The notes under the pieces were generated by a model. The model worked only from the letters and a program-made list of their open reading frames with translations. It ran no database searches and was not told where the DNA came from. A DNA stretch of 64,000 bases from Candidatus Omnitrophota bacterium (GTDB taxonomy: Bacteria; Omnitrophota; Gorgyraeia; Gygaellales; Profunditerraquicolaceae). A program made the position numbers and the translations under genes. The stretch covers positions 73,829 through 137,828 of the forward strand of contig JBAZJY010000003.1 in assembly GCA_041651115.1 (NCBI GenBank), read 5' to 3'. Every line of letters starts with the position of its first letter. Position 1 is the stretch's first letter. Shown here piece by piece: positions 16,798 through 26,174 of the stretch.

Positions 16798-17280
16798 TTA
16801 ATAGTCAAATTGATTAGACGGATAACCAAAACAGGCAGAACCGTTGTCTTCATAATAACAGTTCCAAATAGACCGCTGTGATTGTGGATAATACTCTAAC
16901 CAGAAGACATACTCCCTTGAGACATCCGGGGCTTTCCCGTCACTAGTGCATCTGCGCGCTACAAGGCAAAATCTTCCATCGGGGTCGTTAGTAGTACACT
17001 CCAAGGAATACCGATAGAAACTACTTGGGCCGCATGAGGTTAAATCTTCTCCCAGATCATCAATGGTTACAGTTTCCGCAGTACCATGTTCCATATAATA
17101 TGCGCAAATATGCTGGCGCATAGCGCCTAGGTGCATTATAGCTTCCGCAAGGCGGGAATTTTCTATTACTCTGCTGTATTGAAAAACACCCAAGGTAGCA
17201 AGGATGCCTAAGACCACTATTACAATAATTAGCTCAAGCAGAGTAAAAGACCTACGGGAAGATTTTGAAGTTAGGCTCAT
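16798..17280 (-). CDS. Prepilin-type N-terminal cleavage/methylation-domain protein (type IV pilin or pseudopilin)
   Basis: The N-terminal RRSFTLLELIIVIVVLGILATL is the classic class III signal peptide (G/FTLxE). The body is Cys-rich and about 160 aa. Confidence 0.75.
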   Translation of the reverse strand: MSLTSKSSRRSFTLLELIIVIVVLGILATLGVFQYSRVIENSRLAEAIMHLGAMRQHICAYYMEHGTAETVTIDDLGEDLTSCGPSSFYRYSLECTTNDPDGRFCLVARRCTSDGKAPDVSREYVFWLEYYPQSQRSIWNCYYEDNGSACFGYPSNQFDY

Positions 17281-17397: not shown

Positions 17398-17426
17398 ATT
17401 CTACTGCCGGTTTAAAAATAGGTCAA
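17398..17426 (-). promoter_or_regulatory. Sigma-70-like promoter TTGACC-N17-TAGAAT, copy 2, upstream of the pilin gene
   Basis: The 32-nt block (attctactgccggNttaaaaataggtcaaNag) is near-identical to the one at 16704-16735. It lies about 118 nt upstream of the pilin ATG and overlaps the stop of the BNR gene. Confidence 0.45.
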
Positions 17427-18955
17427 GAGCTATTGCGGGAAAAATACCCGCCGGTAAGGCCGTCAAGCATTGCCGTCAGCTCGCGCAAGCGCAGTTCCTT
17501 TTCAAACCTCTTCTTCCTGTCTTCGATCGCCAGATTATCCAGTTCGGCCTTGACGCGGATGCGCTCAAAATACAGCTTTGTTACTTCATCAAGTATGTCG
17601 CCGCGCAGCTGCACCATCAGCCTGGAGCGCGTATCAATTGATGTCTGCTCACTATTCCAGACGATCTCACTCAAATCCCAACTTAATGATACATCCCAGC
17701 CGATACTATCCCTGCCCCGCATTAATACATCATCGCAGGTTTTTGTGCTGGAGCCCGATTCCCAATGCCAGAGATCGCCGGTGTCTCTGTCGATACCTAC
17801 GGTAAATCTAGGCATGAATGCTTTTTTGGCAGCCTGCCTTCTCCAACGGATGATCTTTTCCGGTTCAACTTCCGCGTATTTGATCGCGGCTTTCTGGACC
17901 TTATCAATCTCCGGTTCGCCGTTAAGATACAAAGCTTCTATTTTATTGCCGCTATTGTCTACGCAGGAACCAATACGGCCTTTAAACAAACCGCTGTTGC
18001 AGGCAGCATATATATTGCCCTGCCTGTCAGAATCAAGCCCGCGGATATCCTGCGCAATTAAGCCGACAGATACCTCAAACCACCGATCATCCTGCAAAAG
18101 AAATATGCCTTTCTTTACGCAGGCAAAGAGCCGGGAATCAATAGATATTAACAGCAGATTTATATATTTATCGAACAAACCGTAATCCGGCAACAATTCC
18201 CATGTATTTCCGCTGTCAATGCTTTCATAAGTCTTCCCTGCTGCAGCAAGATACAAATGCCCTGGTTTACGGTAATCAACGGCTAAAGAACATGTTTCGC
18301 TAACTTCATCTGCGGCTTCTTCAGCCGCTTCTTCCGGAGCCTCATTATCAATTCCGGCAGAAGGAACAAAAACTCTTTGCCAATTACCTGTGCCGGATTG
18401 CATCTTAAATACTCCCTGTGCGGAAGCAGCATAAATATTGCCTGCGTCAACGCTAATCGTGCATATCCGGCTGTTTGCTAAAATGCCGGCTTCTTTTTGC
18501 CAGCTGCGGCAGTTATCTTTACTGACAAATAATCCTGCTTTTGTCCCTAAATAGATACGATTATTAAACAGCGCAACAGAGCTACAATTACTTTCCAGAT
18601 AATCCCTGCCCTTAAATACCCTTTTCCAATTTGAGCCCTGATCACGGCTTAAATATAACCCATTCCCCGTAGCTGCCAGTAAAAGGTTGGTTCCGCTTAC
18701 CGCAACAAAAAAATTGACCTGCTGCCTTACGGTTAAAACATGTCTCCATTGTTTACCGGCATTCTCGGTTTTTATGATCCCGCCTGCTGAACCGGCTACG
18801 ATCACTGATGCGTTATCAGGATTCACCCAAACCGCGCTGAAGCGCAAGTTACCACCTCCGATATCCTGCCATTCTGCCTGTTGCGCTGCCAGGCTGTTTG
18901 CCACAGTCACGGCTATTAAAAACATGACCGTAAAAATAAGTTCACGTTTCTTCAT
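17423..18955 (-). CDS. Secreted BNR/Asp-box repeat protein with a C-terminal coiled-coil region
   Basis: 510 aa. Signal peptide, then several SxDxGxxW Asp-box motifs (SRDQGSNW, SKDNCRSW, SIDSGNTW). Confidence 0.5.
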   Translation of the reverse strand: MKKRELIFTVMFLIAVTVANSLAAQQAEWQDIGGGNLRFSAVWVNPDNASVIVAGSAGGIIKTENAGKQWRHVLTVRQQVNFFVAVSGTNLLLAATGNGLYLSRDQGSNWKRVFKGRDYLESNCSSVALFNNRIYLGTKAGLFVSKDNCRSWQKEAGILANSRICTISVDAGNIYAASAQGVFKMQSGTGNWQRVFVPSAGIDNEAPEEAAEEAADEVSETCSLAVDYRKPGHLYLAAAGKTYESIDSGNTWELLPDYGLFDKYINLLLISIDSRLFACVKKGIFLLQDDRWFEVSVGLIAQDIRGLDSDRQGNIYAACNSGLFKGRIGSCVDNSGNKIEALYLNGEPEIDKVQKAAIKYAEVEPEKIIRWRRQAAKKAFMPRFTVGIDRDTGDLWHWESGSSTKTCDDVLMRGRDSIGWDVSLSWDLSEIVWNSEQTSIDTRSRLMVQLRGDILDEVTKLYFERIRVKAELDNLAIEDRKKRFEKELRLRELTAMLDGLTGGYFSRNSS

Positions 18956-19046
18956 TTCTCCACCTCTCTACGTGGACCCCGCCTTTGGCGGGGTAAGTTC
19001 GGACATATGAGTTATGTCGCCCTGCTCCATAACTCATGTCCTCACT

Positions 19047-19076
19047 TAATAGACGAAAAAGGTGGCGAAATCTAAC
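19047..19076 (-). promoter_or_regulatory. Copy 2 of the TAATAGACGAA-N11-AATCTAAC motif, about 90 nt upstream of the BNR-repeat gene
   Basis: Same two conserved blocks and spacing as copy 1. It is located downstream of the CHAT gene. Confidence 0.35.
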
Positions 19077-19086
19077 TAAAAAATAT

Positions 19087-19137
19087 GGGGACGGTTCTAT
19101 TTTTCAACTAAAAATAGAACCGTCCCCGGTTTTTCAA
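19087..19137. repeat. Perfect 18-bp-stem hairpin related to the family A termini
   Basis: ggggacggttctattttt-caact-aaaaatagaaccgtcccc. It shares the GGGACGGTTCT core with family A. It lies in a 334-nt hairpin-rich intergenic region. Confidence 0.6.
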
Positions 19138-19289
19138 ATAAAAACGGCAAGGGGGAAATTGGAAAGTTTTTGCTTTTTGCCGGGCATTGCCTGCCCGCTG
19201 GTAGTTTCACCCCTCGCCGCACTCTTACTCTACAGCTAAAGCATAACACATTAACCGCTGATTTTCAAGGGGACGGAGAAAATATTTTT

Positions 19290-21503
19290 TCAGCTGTTTT
19301 CTAAATCAATGAATTCCTTGCGGATATTTTCATGCGCCGGCGTATCTATGCGGCGGTAGATTTCCTGCGCCTGCCGGAAATATTCCTTTGCCGCTGCCTT
19401 ACGGTTTTTGGACTTTTCCAGCAACCCTAAATTATAATATGCTCCCGCAAGATCAGGCATCAGGCTTATTTCTTTGGAAACGGCAACCGCTTTATCAAAA
19501 TATTTTTCCGCCTCCTGAAGATTGCCCATTTTCATATATAATTCTCCGATCATATTATAATCAGAAGCAAAAGCAAGACGGTTACCATGAGATTCATCTA
19601 TCTTCAGACCTTTAAGATAACATTCCATTGCCTGGCTATATTGCTTTTCCAGAAGATGCATTTCACCCAGGTTAAAATAATAATCGCTAAGCTCGCTCTT
19701 CAGGTCCATTTTTTCAAATATCTGCAGGCTTTTTTGATAAAATTCCCTGGCAGCGCTATAATCGTTTTTATTAGAAAAAACCAGCCCAAGATCAAAATAA
19801 TCACAGGCAAGATTATATCTGTACCGGCGGTCAGACTGGTTCTCCCGGTTGATCTCGGCGCTTTTAGTTAAAAGCTCAAGCGCTTTATCATAGTCCTCTT
19901 TATCAATATACCATACGGCAAGCTTACGCAAACCGGAAGCTTCATTCAATCGGTCCTTTGCCCCCTTGCTGGTTGAGATCGCTTTATTATAAAATTCAAA
20001 TGCCTTGGGGTAATCTCCGAATAGATGATGGATCCAGCCTATACCTATATATGCTTCGGAAAGATTCTTCCAATCACCCCTTTTCTGACTGTATAACGCA
20101 TAGTCAAAATAGTACTTTAATGCGTTTTCCCGTTCACCCATCCGCTGATAGGTATTCGCCAGCAGGGAATACGCCGGCAGGAACATCGGGTCATTTTTAA
20201 TAATCTTACGCGAAAGCGCGATGATCTCTGCATTACCGCCTTTTTCAAACAGTTTATTTGCCCTCAAATATAAGGGGTATGACGCCGGATTACGAAAAGG
20301 CAGGATAGAATATAAATACGCACCGGCTCCGATGAACAGCGCAATCACAGCCAGTTTCAAGATCCTGCTTTTACTACTGCGTATTGCCTTGCGTATCTTT
20401 GCCGGCGCCTGCGCAGGCATTTTTTGCTTAAATAAACGAAACGCCGGATCTCCGTAAAGAATATATCCTGCCCAACAAACTGCTGCCGGGCCATATTCTT
20501 TAACTAAACGCTGCCGGCTTAAGCGTATGCATTCTCCGATTGACGCGCCTTTGATCAGCCGGTCGTAGAATTCTTTGGCGAACATAAGGCTCACCGGGTC
20601 CTCTATCTGCCAGATCGTGCCGATATAATGCCTGACCCCGGAAAATAAAAATGCCGCTGCCAAACTGTACGTCTTCTCCTGGTAATCATCATTCATCAAG
20701 CCATTAGACGACTTTGCTGAACTACAGGCATTAGAAAAAATAAGGCCTGGCAGAGAAAGATTTTGATTTTCTCCCAATGCAAGTATATCCTGGGCGGTAA
20801 ATCTGCCGTCGCTTAACAGCCATCCTCCGGCAGCATGGCCGCCGGAGCCGTATTCACAATGCCCGGCAAAATGCACAATGTCGTAATCGCGCAGGTTTTT
20901 CTTTACGTAAACCGTATCTATGTCCGTAGACTTAAAATCAATCCTCACCTGCTGCCTGAGCCGGTCAAACTGGTTTCTTATATGCACGCCTTCAAGGTAG
21001 GCAGACTTTAAGTCTGCCGTGGGATCAGCGAGCACAAGCATCTTCAGCACGTTGCTCACCGATGACCGGTATTGCACAACTTTCTCCTGCTGCTGCGTCT
21101 TTACTAACCTGCCTAAATTAAACTTAAGGCAAAGGAAATCGTTTCCGTCATACAAAAGTTCCCACGGAATGCCGATCAGGTCTTCGTCTAAAGAAAGGAT
21201 AAGCTCCCTGCCTTCCGCGTTTCTTAACCGGCTTTTTACCTGACTGGTAAGCAGATGGTCCCAAAGGAATTGGCCTGCCTTTTGCATGCGATTAAGCTGT
21301 TCGGGCTCACAACGGAATTTTCCGGATTCGCCAAGTATTGAGGTGATTTCCCGGCAAAGCCGGTTGATTTGAGGAAAGGATACGGGGATCTGGCTGTAAT
21401 GTTTAAGTGTCGGAGAAAGGCTTCCTGAATTAAAAATGCCCATTATCAGGATGCCGGGCTGCCGAGCCACTTCCAGGACATAAGCGTTTTTCTCTGCGGG
21501 CAT
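19290..21503 (-). CDS. CHAT-domain (caspase-like protease) protein with one TM helix and C-terminal TPR repeats
   Basis: 737 aa. CHAT His/Cys dyad context (DIVHFAGHCEYGSGG ... LIFSNACSSAK), a TM segment (ILKLAVIALFIGAGAYLYSIL), then about 8 TPR-like repeats (e.g. AYYNLGLL). Confidence 0.75.
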   Translation of the reverse strand: MPAEKNAYVLEVARQPGILIMGIFNSGSLSPTLKHYSQIPVSFPQINRLCREITSILGESGKFRCEPEQLNRMQKAGQFLWDHLLTSQVKSRLRNAEGRELILSLDEDLIGIPWELLYDGNDFLCLKFNLGRLVKTQQQEKVVQYRSSVSNVLKMLVLADPTADLKSAYLEGVHIRNQFDRLRQQVRIDFKSTDIDTVYVKKNLRDYDIVHFAGHCEYGSGGHAAGGWLLSDGRFTAQDILALGENQNLSLPGLIFSNACSSAKSSNGLMNDDYQEKTYSLAAAFLFSGVRHYIGTIWQIEDPVSLMFAKEFYDRLIKGASIGECIRLSRQRLVKEYGPAAVCWAGYILYGDPAFRLFKQKMPAQAPAKIRKAIRSSKSRILKLAVIALFIGAGAYLYSILPFRNPASYPLYLRANKLFEKGGNAEIIALSRKIIKNDPMFLPAYSLLANTYQRMGERENALKYYFDYALYSQKRGDWKNLSEAYIGIGWIHHLFGDYPKAFEFYNKAISTSKGAKDRLNEASGLRKLAVWYIDKEDYDKALELLTKSAEINRENQSDRRYRYNLACDYFDLGLVFSNKNDYSAAREFYQKSLQIFEKMDLKSELSDYYFNLGEMHLLEKQYSQAMECYLKGLKIDESHGNRLAFASDYNMIGELYMKMGNLQEAEKYFDKAVAVSKEISLMPDLAGAYYNLGLLEKSKNRKAAAKEYFRQAQEIYRRIDTPAHENIRKEFIDLENS

Positions 21504-21512
21504 AGACGAAGA

Positions 21513-22214
21513 TCAGGTTTTGATATCGAGTAAAATTGCCGCGAGCTTTTCCTTAAGGTCCGCTATCTCTACGGTGTATTTACCCAGCGTCACATGCTCA
21601 AAAACTACTTTTCCCGAATCATTTATATAAGATTCAAGCTCTGTATCGCCTTTTAAGAGAGTAATTCTTAAATCTTTAATCACCCGTAAATTTTGCTTGT
21701 CCCTGACGCTGACTGACAAACCAAATGCTGAACCGCCCCTTTTCTCTACTTTCATTTCCACGCGAATACCGGCAAAATCTTTTAATATCAACACTTCGTC
21801 CTTAAAACCTTTTATTTGACGGCTGCGCAGTACCGGCGCAGGGATCAATTCCTGCCCGACCAGGACATCGCCATTGGTAGCCAAGAGATCCATCAACCCT
21901 TCCTTAAGCTGCAAAAGCACCTCTAACACCGGAATTATTTTTGCTTGAGGGAAAAGGCTCTTTGTTTTAATAATCAAGTCATCTGATATCTCCGGAGCCG
22001 ATGAGATATCCAGATTGATCTGCGCTAAAAACACTTCGGCGCACAGGCTGCATTCTACCAGGTGGCGGCGGATATTCTGTTCTTCTGCCGGGCTAAGTTT
22101 TCCCTCCACAAAACAAGCCATAGTTTCTTCATCCGGATGCTCCTTGGGTATAGGGCTTCCGGACTTATGTTTCCTATATACAAGCTTAATCAGTTTTTCC
22201 AGGTCATTCGGCAT
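21513..22214 (-). CDS. Anti-sigma factor, zf-HC2 type
   Basis: 233 aa. N-terminal HxxxCxxC motif (HLVECSLCAEVF). It lies directly downstream of the ECF sigma gene with a 35-nt gap. Confidence 0.55.
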   Translation of the reverse strand: MPNDLEKLIKLVYRKHKSGSPIPKEHPDEETMACFVEGKLSPAEEQNIRRHLVECSLCAEVFLAQINLDISSAPEISDDLIIKTKSLFPQAKIIPVLEVLLQLKEGLMDLLATNGDVLVGQELIPAPVLRSRQIKGFKDEVLILKDFAGIRVEMKVEKRGGSAFGLSVSVRDKQNLRVIKDLRITLLKGDTELESYINDSGKVVFEHVTLGKYTVEIADLKEKLAAILLDIKT

Positions 22215-22232
22215 AGTTTTATCCTTCCAACA

Positions 22233-22262
22233 TAATAGACGAAGCAGGACTAATAATCTAAC
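22233..22262 (-). promoter_or_regulatory. Conserved 30-nt motif TAATAGACGAA-N11-AATCTAAC (minus-strand reading GTTAGATT-N11-TTCGTCTATTA), copy 1, between the ECF sigma and anti-sigma genes
   Basis: The motif recurs at 19047-19076 with identical flanking blocks and the same 11-nt spacing. Confidence 0.35.
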
Positions 22263-22858
22263 GTAAATCCCTTGGATTTAAAACAGTCTCTTAACCGGCT
22301 GACGATCCGCGATTTGCGCATGTCTATTGCACCGCGGGAAACCCTGAACAGGCCTTTCATTGCCTCCAGGCTCAAGCCGCGGCTGATATGAAACTCAAGA
22401 AAATACTTATCATCCGCATCCAGCGCCTCTATGCATTCTTCAAGCCCGGTGATTTTTTCTTCCACTGCAGCCGTATCCCGGGCAGAAGCCGAATTATCGG
22501 AAAGCTTGCCTGCCAGGGTCAAGCCGTCGTCGTCTTCTTGGTCCAAAGACAACATGGCCCTTTGCTTTCTTAAATAATCCAGGGTGTAATTTACCGTTAC
22601 CTGCCTTAGCCAACTGGCAAGGCTACAGCCGTTCTTTGCTTTAAAAGTCTTGAGTTTTTTGAAATTATCCCGGGAGAGGATAACAACGATCTCGTGAAAG
22701 ATATCGTCGGTATTTTCTTCGGTGGCAAGAGCGGGGTTATTTTGCCTTAAAGCGGAGTTGATATACCTATAGATGAGGCGAAAATATTTATCTACGAATC
22801 CATCCCAAGCTTGCTTGTCGCCTGAAGCGCAGCGCTGGACAAACTCCAGATCCGTCAT
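22250..22858 (-). CDS. RNA polymerase ECF-type sigma factor
   Basis: 202 aa. Sigma region 2 (FVDKYFRLIYRYI, DIFHEIVVIL) and a region 4 HTH (LSLEAMKGLFRVSRGAIDMRKSRIVSRLRD). It contains an acidic insertion between the regions. Confidence 0.8.
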   Translation of the reverse strand: MTDLEFVQRCASGDKQAWDGFVDKYFRLIYRYINSALRQNNPALATEENTDDIFHEIVVILSRDNFKKLKTFKAKNGCSLASWLRQVTVNYTLDYLRKQRAMLSLDQEDDDGLTLAGKLSDNSASARDTAAVEEKITGLEECIEALDADDKYFLEFHISRGLSLEAMKGLFRVSRGAIDMRKSRIVSRLRDCFKSKGFTLDY

Positions 22859-22902
22859 GACTTTATTTTAACACCAAAAACACAAAGCGTAAAACAAATA
22901 AA

Positions 22903-22950
22903 TAGGGACAGAGCCTACTTTTCTGTACAGAAAAGTAGGCTCTGTCCCTA
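22903..22950. repeat. Palindromic element family B copy 1 (TAGGGACAGAG...); likely bidirectional intrinsic terminator
   Basis: tagggacagagcctacttttctg-taca-gaaaagtaggctctgtcccta, flanked by an A-tract upstream and a T-tract downstream. It lies directly after the hppA stop. Confidence 0.65.
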
Positions 22951-25153: not shown

Positions 25154-25561
25154 TTATTCTGCCTTTGCTGCGATGTTGAGCTTTCTTATGCCAAGGCCGT
25201 TCAAGGTGTCTAATACCGCGACAATGTCCTTAAAACGCACCAGCTTGTCGGAAAACAGGACTACCTCGATACCCGGGTTACCTTCGCGCAGGGCGTGGAT
25301 CCGCTCTTTAAATTCTTTACGCGTTACCAGGATATCGTCAACATAAATAGTCCCCTCATTTGTTACCGTGATATTTACCTGCTGCCGGGCGTTTTCGTTA
25401 GGCTTGGCGCTGGCGGCGTTAGGGAGATTAACCTTGATACCCGAGTGGACGATCAGCGGAGTAGTGATCATAAATATGATCAACAACGTGAGGGCAATAT
25501 CGGTAAGCGGCGTGATATTGATTTCCGTGATCAGTTTTTGTTTTCTGGCGTTGACGTTCAT
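25154..25561 (-). CDS. exbD: Biopolymer transport protein ExbD/TolR
   Basis: 135 aa. A single N-terminal TM helix with the INITPLTDIALTLLIIFM motif. Confidence 0.8.
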   Translation of the reverse strand: MNVNARKQKLITEINITPLTDIALTLLIIFMITTPLIVHSGIKVNLPNAASAKPNENARQQVNITVTNEGTIYVDDILVTRKEFKERIHALREGNPGIEVVLFSDKLVRFKDIVAVLDTLNGLGIRKLNIAAKAE

Positions 25562-25562
25562 T

Positions 25563-26174
25563 TTATTTAGGCGCGGTCAGGTCCATTGTTTCGGAAGCGC
25601 AAAGCTCCATATCTTTGATAAAACTGTCGATCTTCTTAATAAAATAATTATAGGCGGTAATTGCCGGGACAGCAACGCAAAGCCCGGCCGCGGTGGTAAC
25701 AAGCGCTTCGGATATACCATTAATCACTACGCCTACCCCTCCGGTGCCGCTTGCGGAAAGGTCATGAAAAACCCGCATTATGCCTAATACCGTGCCAAAA
25801 AGCCCGATATATACCGCAACGCTGGCGATCGTCCCGATGATGGCGGTAAACCTTTCCAGGGTGGTCGTTTCTACGACGATCTCGCGGTCCATATTATTGG
25901 ATATTTCCTTTTCGCTGTGATTATAGAAGCTCAAGCCGGCGTAAACCACGCTGGAAAACGGAGTATCGCTTTTCTTGCATATTGAGAGGGCTGTTTCAAC
26001 GCTCCCTTTCTCCAGCTCTTTTCTTACTTTTTTCATAAAATCAAGCCTTTTAACCCGCGAGCGCCTGCGGTAATACAGATACCTCTCAATAATAATCGCC
26101 AGGGAAACGATTGAACAAAACAAGAGTATTATTAAGGTAAAGCCGCCGGTCCGGAATAATTGCCACGTTGACAT
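25563..26174 (-). CDS. exbB: MotA/TolQ/ExbB proton-channel protein
   Basis: 203 aa with three TM helices. Conserved GLFGTVLGIM and EALVTTAAGL motifs. Confidence 0.8.
   Translation of the reverse strand: MSTWQLFRTGGFTLIILLFCSIVSLAIIIERYLYYRRRSRVKRLDFMKKVRKELEKGSVETALSICKKSDTPFSSVVYAGLSFYNHSEKEISNNMDREIVVETTTLERFTAIIGTIASVAVYIGLFGTVLGIMRVFHDLSASGTGGVGVVINGISEALVTTAAGLCVAVPAITAYNYFIKKIDSFIKDMELCASETMDLTAPK

Follow-up and report, generated by a model that had tools for sequence, protein, structure and literature searches.

The question raised by this locus is what a membrane-anchored, caspase-like protein is doing in one transcriptional unit with a sigma factor and an anti-sigma factor. The locus lies in a stretch of 64,000 nucleotides (64 kb) of contig JBAZJY010000003.1 from a Candidatus Omnitrophota bacterium (assembly GCA_041651115.1), and this whole stretch is referred to here as the window. 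It consists of three consecutive open reading frames (ORFs) at 22250-22858, 21513-22214 and 19290-21503, which encode, in this order, a sigma factor of the extracytoplasmic function (ECF) class, an anti-sigma factor and a protein in which a CHAT domain, a transmembrane (TM) helix and an array of TPR repeats follow one another. These genes and all other features of the window described below are on its minus strand. A first-pass annotation, made from the sequence alone, had proposed a regulated-proteolysis circuit for the three genes. The comparative analysis described here is consistent with a three-gene transmembrane signalling module in which the CHAT protease would cut the anti-sigma factor to free the sigma factor, a reading that is held with about even confidence.

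In bacterial signal transduction ECF sigma factors count as the third pillar, and in the known routes from the envelope to a sigma factor a membrane-spanning anti-sigma factor is degraded stepwise by several proteases, or the signal is passed on by phosphorylation or partner switching. The statement of the first-pass annotation that no circuit of the proposed kind had been characterised was too strong, as there are three precedents. In the CRISPR-associated Craspase system the TPR-CHAT protease Csx29 has been shown experimentally to cleave Csx30, which lifts the inhibition of the ECF-like CASP-sigma; the N-terminal domain of Csx30 binds CASP-sigma, and a loop in its C-terminal domain is cut by Csx29 within residues 427-429, deletion of M427 alone being enough to block cleavage (PMC10028731). 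The second precedent, DdvA/DdvS of Myxococcus xanthus, involves a transmembrane anti-sigma factor of the zinc-binding anti-sigma (ZAS) type, DdvA, which carries a periplasmic TPR-CHAT region and is stated to be the only characterised anti-sigma factor with such a domain. Reports of DdvA-like proteins are confined to Myxococcota and a single Comamonas species; the DdvA dyad is intact, its dyad mutants are resting-state-like, and only autoproteolysis in trans has been hypothesised (PMC11506125). The third, CalpL/CalpT/CalpS, is outlined in two preprints as a SAVED-Lon protease, an anti-sigma factor and a sigma factor of ECF-like type (bioRxiv 10.1101/2023.06.23.546230; 10.1101/2024.05.08.593097). 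Full-text literature searches returned no CHAT-linked ECF module outside these systems and nothing on one in Omnitrophota, and the main text of the ECF reclassification paper makes no mention of a CHAT- or caspase-linked ECF group. What is new in the present locus is therefore its architecture and setting, the logic being already known, and a membrane-anchored CHAT/anti-sigma/sigma architecture outside a defence locus appears to be undescribed.

Gene order and linkage in related loci

The ORF listing gives exactly the arrangement first described, with a gap of 35 nt (22215-22249) between the sigma and anti-sigma genes and of 9 nt (21504-21512) between the anti-sigma and CHAT genes. That the three genes form one transcriptional unit is supported computationally by terminators on both sides and a promoter 5' of the sigma ATG, with the refinement that a further, ECF-type promoter lies inside the unit at the sigma/anti-sigma junction.

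Linkage was scored in 83 loci around relatives of the CHAT-TM-TPR protein, three of them from species-representative genomes and the other 80 being the best of 277 from metagenomes. Gene order was determined by scripted tblastn, and a locus was counted where at least 750 nt of upstream DNA was available for the anti-sigma factor and at least 1500 nt for the sigma factor. An anti-sigma homologue was found directly 5' of the CHAT gene and on the same strand in all 74 loci that could be scored, and a sigma homologue upstream of the CHAT gene in all 57. The genes are tightly or even translationally coupled, with median gaps of about 8 nt between anti-sigma and CHAT genes (4-nt overlaps in four loci) and about 39 nt between sigma and anti-sigma genes. 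The co-occurrence also extends to remote relatives, which are described below, and look-ups anchored on the anti-sigma factor recovered the same trio in both cases (2/2). Omnitrophota orthologues, at 53-73% identity, make up most of the 83 loci, and across this phylum the module is syntenic and apparently single-copy; the trio is, however, kept where the flanking genes differ, as in loci L003 (42% identity), L039, L041 and L074.

A CHAT protease joined through one membrane helix to a TPR array

The third protein was confirmed to combine an N-terminal CHAT domain, a single TM helix and about 8 TPR repeats. The CHAT domain, of the caspase-like clan CD, occupies residues 74-352 of 737 (20448-21284) and matches PF12770 with 109 bits (gathering score 24) and an E value of 3.9e-31 over profile positions 1-289 of 289; there is a secondary match of the same region to Peptidase_C25 (31.4 bits against 23). 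The candidate catalytic residues are H215 of HFAGH (codon 20859-20861) and C260 of SNAC (codon 20724-20726); both, as well as H211 in the same HFAGH motif, were found to be invariant in 151 of 151 aligned relatives. The His-Cys spacing is 45 residues, as it is in DdvA (H862/C907), and 43 in Csx29 (H615/C658), and downstream of the Cys the alignment with DdvA keeps a consistent register.

The single TM helix spans residues 383-403 (20295-20357), where the top 19-residue Kyte-Doolittle windows reach 1.83-1.95, and the AlphaFold model has a long helix at 369-400. The position of the helix is identical in 16 of 16 members of the family, and in the same 16 its N-terminal flank carries five to eight Lys and Arg residues against none to three on the C-terminal flank. 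The protein is without an N-terminal signal peptide. Because of this positive-inside bias, the missing signal peptide and the distribution of domains in the relatives described below (cyclases on the CHAT side, periplasmic modules on the opposite side), the CHAT domain is predicted to be cytoplasmic together with the anti-sigma and sigma factors and the TPR array to be outside. Hydropathy, the positive-inside rule and the domain swaps agree in this prediction, and it is the topology that the proposed circuit calls for. The juxtamembrane linker, segment 352-382, is basic, varies and lacks a conserved motif.

Residues 404-737 (19293-20294) form the TPR domain, a predicted extracytoplasmic sensor with profile matches from about residue 430 to 720. 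In the AlphaFold model it comprises 17 helices, or about 8.5 repeats, with a predicted local distance difference test (pLDDT) score above 90. Within it lies an invariant stretch that is unlike a TPR, NLACDYF at residues 564-570 (19791-19811), which includes an invariant Cys567 and is preceded by a nearly invariant Tyr563 (YNLACDYF). The motif is a candidate for the site at which the sensor binds a ligand or partner.

A soluble anti-sigma factor with an invariant arginine in a flexible loop

The middle gene (21513-22214) encodes an anti-sigma factor of 233 aa and ZAS type, built of an N-terminal zinc-binding helical domain, a linker that varies, a flexible loop that is conserved and, at the C-terminus, a beta-sandwich. 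The zinc motif reads H26...H51-x3-C55-x2-C58. Position 26 is His in the clade of the window protein and Cys elsewhere, and H51, C55 and C58 are invariant in 10 partner proteins that share 15-35% identity. Its maximum 19-residue Kyte-Doolittle mean is 1.37, so that there is no TM segment, and the protein is taken to be soluble because it lacks a hydrophobic span. The zinc motif is the one noted in the first-pass annotation, and the zf-HC2 score of the window protein is just short of the Pfam gathering threshold; precomputed annotations assign PF13490 (zf-HC2) to some of its homologues. TIGR03988 (RsrA) gave a weak match (E 0.018), and the top PDB sequence match of the family profile was the N-terminal domain of DdvA (8rlz), at a marginal E of 0.17. 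The family is uniform in length, with 545 matches that are all of about 234 aa. The protein would bind and inhibit the sigma factor encoded next to it.

In the AlphaFold model of the anti-sigma factor the N-terminal helices have a pLDDT of 60-71, and the linker, residues 68-114, is disordered and variable. Between this linker and the sandwich lies the segment GDVLVGQELIPAPVLRSRQIKGFKDE (residues 113-139; 21798-21878), which is the most conserved stretch in the family and at the same time poorly structured: the block-mean pLDDT is about 50-57 over residues 111-140 and drops below 50 at residues 130-132. Arg130 (codon 21825-21827) lies here in a P-x-x-x-R motif with a small or polar residue after it. 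Among the 10 divergent anti-sigma factors only 12 positions are invariant, namely Met1, E30, L40, H51, C55, C58, five residues of the beta-sandwich and R130. From this combination of conservation and predicted flexibility the segment is predicted to serve as docking and cleavage site for the protease, with the cut placed after Arg130. Specificity for Arg is common in clan CD enzymes, among them separase, metacaspases and gingipain R.

The C-terminal beta-sandwich, residues 140-231 (21522-21797), is modelled with a pLDDT of 80-88 and has an Ig/FN3-like fold. Fold searches against the PDB gave generic Ig/FN3-like matches only, none with E <= 0.001. The sandwich is likely to be the recognition domain for the protease.

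The sigma factor, its candidate promoter motif and a secreted beta-propeller protein

The first gene (22250-22858) encodes an ECF (group 4) sigma-70 factor of 202 aa, which matches TIGR02937 with 61 bits (cut-off 42.9) over residues 17-192 and Sigma70_r2 with 24.3 bits (gathering score 24) and has no hydrophobic span in the hydropathy scan. Its identity as an ECF sigma factor is thereby upheld. The acidic insert between regions 2 and 4 that had been called unusual is a minor feature, as 176 residues cover 163 positions of TIGR02937 and the acidic sigma2-sigma4 linker is only about 13 residues longer than the profile. None of the NCBIfam models for ECF subgroups reached its cut-off with this protein. 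A specific kinship to the type III-E sigma factor was considered and rejected, as the type III-E RpoE-like model NF041236 scored 33.6 bits against a cut-off of 100 and generic ECF models scored higher.

A motif of two blocks, TGTTAGATTT-N12-TACGTCTATTA, equivalent to GTTAGA-N15-CGTCTA, was first found 5' of the beta-propeller gene that in many cases follows the module. A CGTC element at -10 is typical of ECF promoters. Exact copies of the motif occur twice in the window, both on the minus strand, against an expectation of 0.12 even if a mismatch is tolerated. The copy at site A (22236-22262) shares bases with the sigma stop codon (22250-22252), and 21 nt separate its end from the anti-sigma ATG, a stretch that includes a GGAAGGA Shine-Dalgarno sequence at 22222-22228; site B, GTTAGATTTCGCCACCTTTTTCGTCTA (19050-19076), lies just past the terminator of the unit and 5' of the propeller gene. 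The motif recurs in the related loci, with 121 matches in 72 of the 83, the spacer being exactly 15 nt in 115 of these matches and the orientation that of the module in 114. It is present at the sigma/anti-sigma junction in at least 56 of 70 loci, ending some 18-30 nt ahead of the anti-sigma start, and a match that could not be classified mostly falls at this junction too, in a locus whose gap is longer or whose contig is cut. Divergent loci (L003, L084, L089/90) also have it at the junction; in Nitrospinota-type loci, where the sigma factor is more divergent, it is replaced by other sequence. From this placement we infer that the window sigma factor reads GTTAGA-N15-CGTCTA.

Site B precedes a gene (17423-18955) for a secreted BNR/sortilin-type beta-propeller protein of 510 aa, assigned from profile matches and a signal-peptide-like N-terminus. 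A propeller gene follows the module on the same strand in 27 of 35 loci, at distances of 90-4692 nt, and the motif stands ahead of the propeller gene in 39 of 43 loci, at whatever distance this gene lies from the CHAT gene (90 nt or 4.7 kb). The beta-propeller gene is accordingly a candidate member of the regulon.

The spacing between promoter and propeller gene is variable, and mobile sequences seem to land between the two. In the window, the interval from site B to the propeller start (18956-19049) contains hairpin-forming insertions, as do L001 and L035; in L057 a small GIY-YIG-like ORF takes their place.

Swapped sensors and alternative outputs in remote relatives

More remote relatives were sought in an exhaustive search of 1.84 billion representatives of 50% identity clusters, for which the cytoplasmic part of the CHAT protein served as the only query. 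The search returned 722 proteins at E <= 1e-30. The best 150 representatives are 36-64% identical to the query; about 119 of them have the CHAT domain at the N-terminus, and about 31 have an extension ahead of it. The C-terminal parts of those with an N-terminal CHAT domain vary and include DUF4384, CsgG/LpoB-like segments, S1-C domains of trypsin-like type and TPR arrays of as much as about 1900 aa. In remote relatives whose CHAT domain is 36-48% identical the outer parts comprise TPR arrays of 1237-1821 aa, DUF4384 with trypsin, the trypsin part of a CHAT-trypsin protein from Nitrospinota and CsgG-like domains.

In all eight remote loci with an N-terminal CHAT domain an anti-sigma-like gene (~220-275 aa) directly adjoins the CHAT gene or overlaps it. 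The Nitrospinota partner is an anti-sigma homologue by profile comparison (hhalign 99.6%, E 9e-24), and the other seven align with the window anti-sigma factor at 15-29% identity and retain the zinc motif and Arg130. A sigma gene lies upstream in six of the seven remote loci with enough DNA.

The N-terminal extensions of about 215-260 aa were considered as possible fused anti-sigma factors. This was rejected, as a Pfam scan identified a class III adenylate/guanylate cyclase domain in nine of nine, and CHASE2 instead in one further member. The one cyclase-fused locus that was fetched (P0283) has neither a sigma nor an anti-sigma gene. In these relatives the cyclase, a cytoplasmic domain, is on the CHAT side of the TM helix, and the trypsin/S1-C, LpoB/CsgG-like and DUF4384 domains are on the opposite side. 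One CHAT-TM-sensor chassis thus serves two kinds of wiring, to a separate sigma/anti-sigma pair or to a fused cyclase, as would be expected were the CHAT domain to act on an output module in the cytoplasm. More broadly, it is proposed tentatively, at somewhat less than even confidence, that CHAT-TM-sensor proteins are a widespread and unrecognised class of single-pass receptor proteases with a swappable sensor, the dedicated cytoplasmic partner to be cut being a soluble beta-sandwich ZAS anti-sigma factor (after Arg), for a transcriptional output, or a fused class III cyclase, for an output by second messenger.

Several features of these relatives may be recorded here. The cyclase-fused sister group is sizeable and includes P0264, P0268, P0271, P0283, P0284, P0288, P0293, P0297 and P0328, together with L088; the linkers between cyclase and CHAT domain are rich in Arg, and cleavage might release or activate the cyclase. 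In L085/L086 (Nitrospinota) and L087 a periplasmic, trypsin-like S1-C domain (DegS/HtrA-like) stands in place of the TPR array, so that one protein has a protease domain on either side of the membrane. An OmpA-family gene adjoins the module in L085/L086, and an alpha-2-macroglobulin-like gene follows it in L086. Genes for BNR/sortilin-type propellers or CsgG/Glucodextran_B-like proteins are found beside the module in L093 (1-2140 of that locus) and L092 (5110-7239), a hint that the module repeatedly has secreted propeller or CsgG-like envelope proteins for partners or targets.

Comparison with known systems

The closest likeness is to Craspase, in which a CHAT protease with a TPR module also acts on a soluble two-domain inhibitor of an ECF-like sigma factor (PMC10028731), the cleavage being shown there and predicted here. 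The likeness extends to the inhibitor, for which the prediction in the window is a cut in a flexible loop within or beside the C-terminal domain, with this domain as the recognition element. The Arg130 loop and the recognition-type C-terminal domain of the window protein thus mirror Csx30, with its sigma-binding N-terminal domain and its cut flexible loop. In both cases there are also motifs, candidate ones in the window, for the sigma factor within its own locus. The differences are equally clear. Csx29 is soluble, has its TPR region N-terminal to the CHAT domain and is activated by target RNA via Cas7-11; in the window module, by contrast, there is no CRISPR component, the TPR array is C-terminal, behind a membrane helix, and a ZAS zinc finger with a beta-sandwich takes the place of Csx30 as inhibitor. 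The module also has a core-genome setting, whereas Craspase belongs to a defence locus.

DdvA/DdvS shares with the module an ECF sigma factor held by a CHCC/ZAS zinc domain and a TPR-CHAT region with an intact dyad that is coupled to it across a single membrane helix. DdvA, however, is a single polypeptide with a cytoplasmic ZAS domain, a TM helix and a periplasmic TPR-CHAT region, whereas the anti-sigma factor of the window is separate and soluble and its CHAT domain is predicted to be cytoplasmic, as it precedes the TM helix and lies on the flank with the positive-inside bias; the module is therefore not of the DdvA type. For DdvA, autoproteolysis followed by intramembrane cleavage by RseP has been proposed, and the window module would need no site-2 protease. 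CalpL-CalpT-CalpS resembles the module in its three-gene arrangement and in that a signal-activated cytoplasmic protease cuts a soluble anti-sigma factor and frees an ECF-like sigma factor, as is predicted here, but CalpL is of Lon type, is activated by cyclic oligoadenylate, has no membrane span and is CRISPR-associated.

With classical regulated intramembrane proteolysis (DegS/RseP-RseA-sigmaE; PrsW/RasP-RsiW-sigmaW) the module would share the path from an extracytoplasmic cue through proteolysis of an anti-sigma factor to an ECF sigma factor, and it shares the operon order of sigma before anti-sigma. In the classical systems the anti-sigma factor spans the membrane and separate site-1 and site-2 proteases are needed; in the window it is the protease that spans the membrane and the anti-sigma factor, with a maximum hydropathy of 1.37 and no TM segment, is not of the RseA/RsiW type. 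The Nitrospinota-type relatives come closer in one respect, as they have a DegS-like S1-C domain fused on the outside of the CHAT protein.

Proposed mechanism and alternative explanations

Taken together, these data suggest the following course of events. At rest, the ECF sigma factor would be made constitutively from an extended -10, leaderless-type promoter and be kept inactive by the soluble ZAS anti-sigma factor. The receptor would be a single-pass protease with its TPR array in the periplasm as the sensor and its caspase-like CHAT domain in the cytoplasm. An extracytoplasmic cue would activate the CHAT domain, likely via dimerisation or a conformational change through the helix, and the activated domain would dock on the C-terminal beta-sandwich of the anti-sigma factor and cut the flexible loop just ahead of it, most likely after Arg130 (P-x-x-x-R|S). 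The fragment left bound to the sigma factor would be destabilised and the sigma factor set free to read GTTAGA-N15-CGTCTA promoters. The one at the junction would re-supply anti-sigma factor and protease, providing feedback and reset, and the one before the secreted beta-propeller gene would give the output. The regulated-proteolysis circuit first suggested for the locus gains from the comparative tests of linkage, sensor swaps, dyad, topology and the Arg130 loop, while cleavage itself stays a prediction. The dyad proved to be conserved and the three genes to occur together, the two points on which the first-pass annotation had said that its proposal could fail.

A number of points weigh against this mechanism. 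The support for proteolysis and for the protein contacts is comparative throughout and none of it is direct, and the ZAS motif by itself is compatible with redox control without any protease. The predicted Arg at P1 differs from the mapped specificity of Csx29. The core of the CHAT domain, residues 132-370, has a pLDDT below 50 in the AlphaFold model, too low for active-site geometry, S1-pocket chemistry or fold to be read from it; the CHAT profile also gave only marginal matches to PDB sequences, the best being 8tl0 (E 0.084) and the second 8rot_B, which is DdvA (E 0.19). The topology was derived from hydropathy, the positive-inside rule and domain logic, the zf-HC2 model PF13490 scored 20.0 bits with the window anti-sigma factor against a gathering score of 22.2, and the motif is assigned to the sigma factor by position only. 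Finally, no sigma gene is adjacent in remote locus L093, and the sampled loci are mostly from one phylum with conserved synteny, a pyrophosphatase (H+-PPase) gene being upstream in 35 of 44 loci, so that part of the co-occurrence is due to shared ancestry.

One alternative is a redox or zinc switch, in which the ZAS anti-sigma factor frees the sigma factor on thiol oxidation, as RsrA does, and the CHAT-TM-TPR protein is a co-transcribed effector or regulon member, such as a protease of the envelope, rather than the upstream regulator. The invariant H/C26...H51-x3-C55-x2-C58 motif and the weak match to the RsrA model (TIGR03988) noted above would fit this, and the CHAT gene, being read like the anti-sigma gene from the internal ECF-type promoter, is formally a regulon member. 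RsrA-type anti-sigma factors, however, are short and have neither a conserved C-terminal beta-sandwich nor an invariant Arg loop, coupling or overlap joins the anti-sigma gene to the CHAT gene in a pairing that outlasts swaps of the sensor, and the cyclase-fused relatives argue that the CHAT chassis is upstream of an output. It is also established that many ZAS proteins bind zinc structurally and are not redox-sensing, as is set out in the discussion of DdvA (PMC11506125). A redox switch is therefore considered unlikely.

Unlikely to the same degree is a mechanism in which the anti-sigma factor is never cut, either because the CHAT protein acts via the beta-sandwich as a non-proteolytic tether or partner switch, which holds the sigma/anti-sigma complex at the membrane or lets it go, or because only autoproteolysis at the juxtamembrane linker occurs, as has been proposed for DdvA. 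What is reported for DdvA, with resting-like dyad mutants and an autoproteolysis in trans that is only hypothesised (PMC11506125), would be in keeping with this, as would the basic and variable character of segment 352-382. The invariance of H211, H215 and C260 in 151 diverse relatives nevertheless implies catalysis, and the juxtamembrane linker lacks a conserved motif, whereas the anti-sigma factor does have its invariant Arg in a flexible loop.

An infection-sensing, anti-phage defence regulator in the manner of Craspase, CalpL or DdvA was also considered, given that a link to defence is common to every characterised CHAT/sigma or protease/anti-sigma/sigma trio of this kind and that the sigma factor has a weak match to the type III-E RpoE-like model. 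That match is far below the cut-off of the model and below those to generic ECF models, as described above, and the window has no CRISPR array and no Rfam match. PADLOC returned only generic matches to TPR repeats, for which reason membership of a defence system was rejected, and the neighbours are housekeeping genes. The module is moreover syntenic and apparently single-copy phylum-wide, with one recurrent target that is a secreted beta-propeller protein. A role in defence thus appears highly improbable.

That the linkage is inherited synteny within one phylum and without functional meaning, as the many Omnitrophota orthologues at 53-73% identity and the conserved PPase synteny might suggest, can hardly be entertained and is largely refuted by the remote loci, as the trio survives changed flanks (L003, L039, L041, L074), remote architectures and the step to Nitrospinota, and the stop/start overlaps and shared promoter motif indicate co-expression.

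Boundaries of the unit and neighbouring genes

A terminator scan placed long hairpin terminators with stems of 18-20 bp on both sides of the three-gene unit. The upstream boundary is the intrinsic terminator of the H+-PPase gene (22904-22949), a perfect 20-bp stem followed by a T-run, and the downstream boundary is an intrinsic terminator with an 18/19-bp stem and a T-run at 19087-19127, which begins 162 nt after the stop codon of the CHAT-TPR gene. Both stems start with GGGAC(A/G)G, and many loci have ...GTCCCTA(A/T)TT 5' of the sigma promoter; such long perfect hairpins may be a phylum-typical style of terminator or a repeat family.

Between the upstream terminator and the sigma gene lies a housekeeping-type promoter, TTTACG-17-TAAAAT (22865-22893), with an extended -10 TG at 22872-22873. 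The extended -10 box, TG-T-TAAAAT (22865-22873), ends 6 nt ahead of the ATG, and among 53 non-identical related loci TA[TA]AAT starts 12-15 nt 5' of the sigma ATG in 43. An autoregulatory ECF promoter upstream of the sigma gene was considered and rejected, as this housekeeping-type box occupies the position. The sigma gene has no Shine-Dalgarno sequence, and the TGnTA[TA]AAT box (22856-22893 in the window) stands at a fixed offset of 6-9 nt from the ATG, an arrangement conserved in 43 of the 53 related loci. Because the -10 box ends only 6 nt before the ATG and a Shine-Dalgarno sequence is lacking, the sigma mRNA is probably leaderless or nearly so, a prediction made from the sequence.

The 162-nt untranslated tail between the CHAT-TPR stop codon and the terminator (19128-19289) holds a promoter-like TTGAAA-17-TATGCT (19240-19268) and could be a 3' untranslated region or a small RNA. 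An Rfam search of 18900-19350 returned chance matches only, which were due to the hairpin.

The genes of the neighbourhood belong to core metabolism and the envelope (H+-PPase, ExbBD, hydrogenase, Ack/Pta). An ExbB/ExbD pair (25154-26174) lies upstream of the PPase gene, and a protein of 160 aa with a prepilin-type N-methylation motif is encoded downstream of the propeller gene (16798-17280). Nearly every gene in the window is on the minus strand.

Implications

Omnitrophota are a phylum of mostly ultra-small, uncultured bacteria, and the module offers a first handle on gene regulation in them. In this module the protease itself would be the transmembrane receptor and the anti-sigma factor is soluble, apparently giving a simpler, one-step relay, and the logic of the CRISPR-associated Craspase would be reused in a chromosomal, non-defence setting. 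To the first suggestion of a circuit the present analysis adds its breadth past one phylum, the alternative outputs, the predicted scissile Arg, and the promoter motif with its candidate target gene. The distribution of sensors and outputs suggests that in this CHAT subfamily interchangeable sensors are wired to interchangeable outputs, either a sigma factor or a cyclase. Although the hosts are uncultured, the proposal can be tested in E. coli, as it comes with a defined dyad (H215/C260) and a predicted scissile site, promoter and target gene. If it is true, the module would represent a third route from the envelope to an ECF sigma factor beside intramembrane proteolysis and partner switching, and Omnitrophota would have it throughout the phylum as a core pathway that controls a secreted beta-propeller protein.

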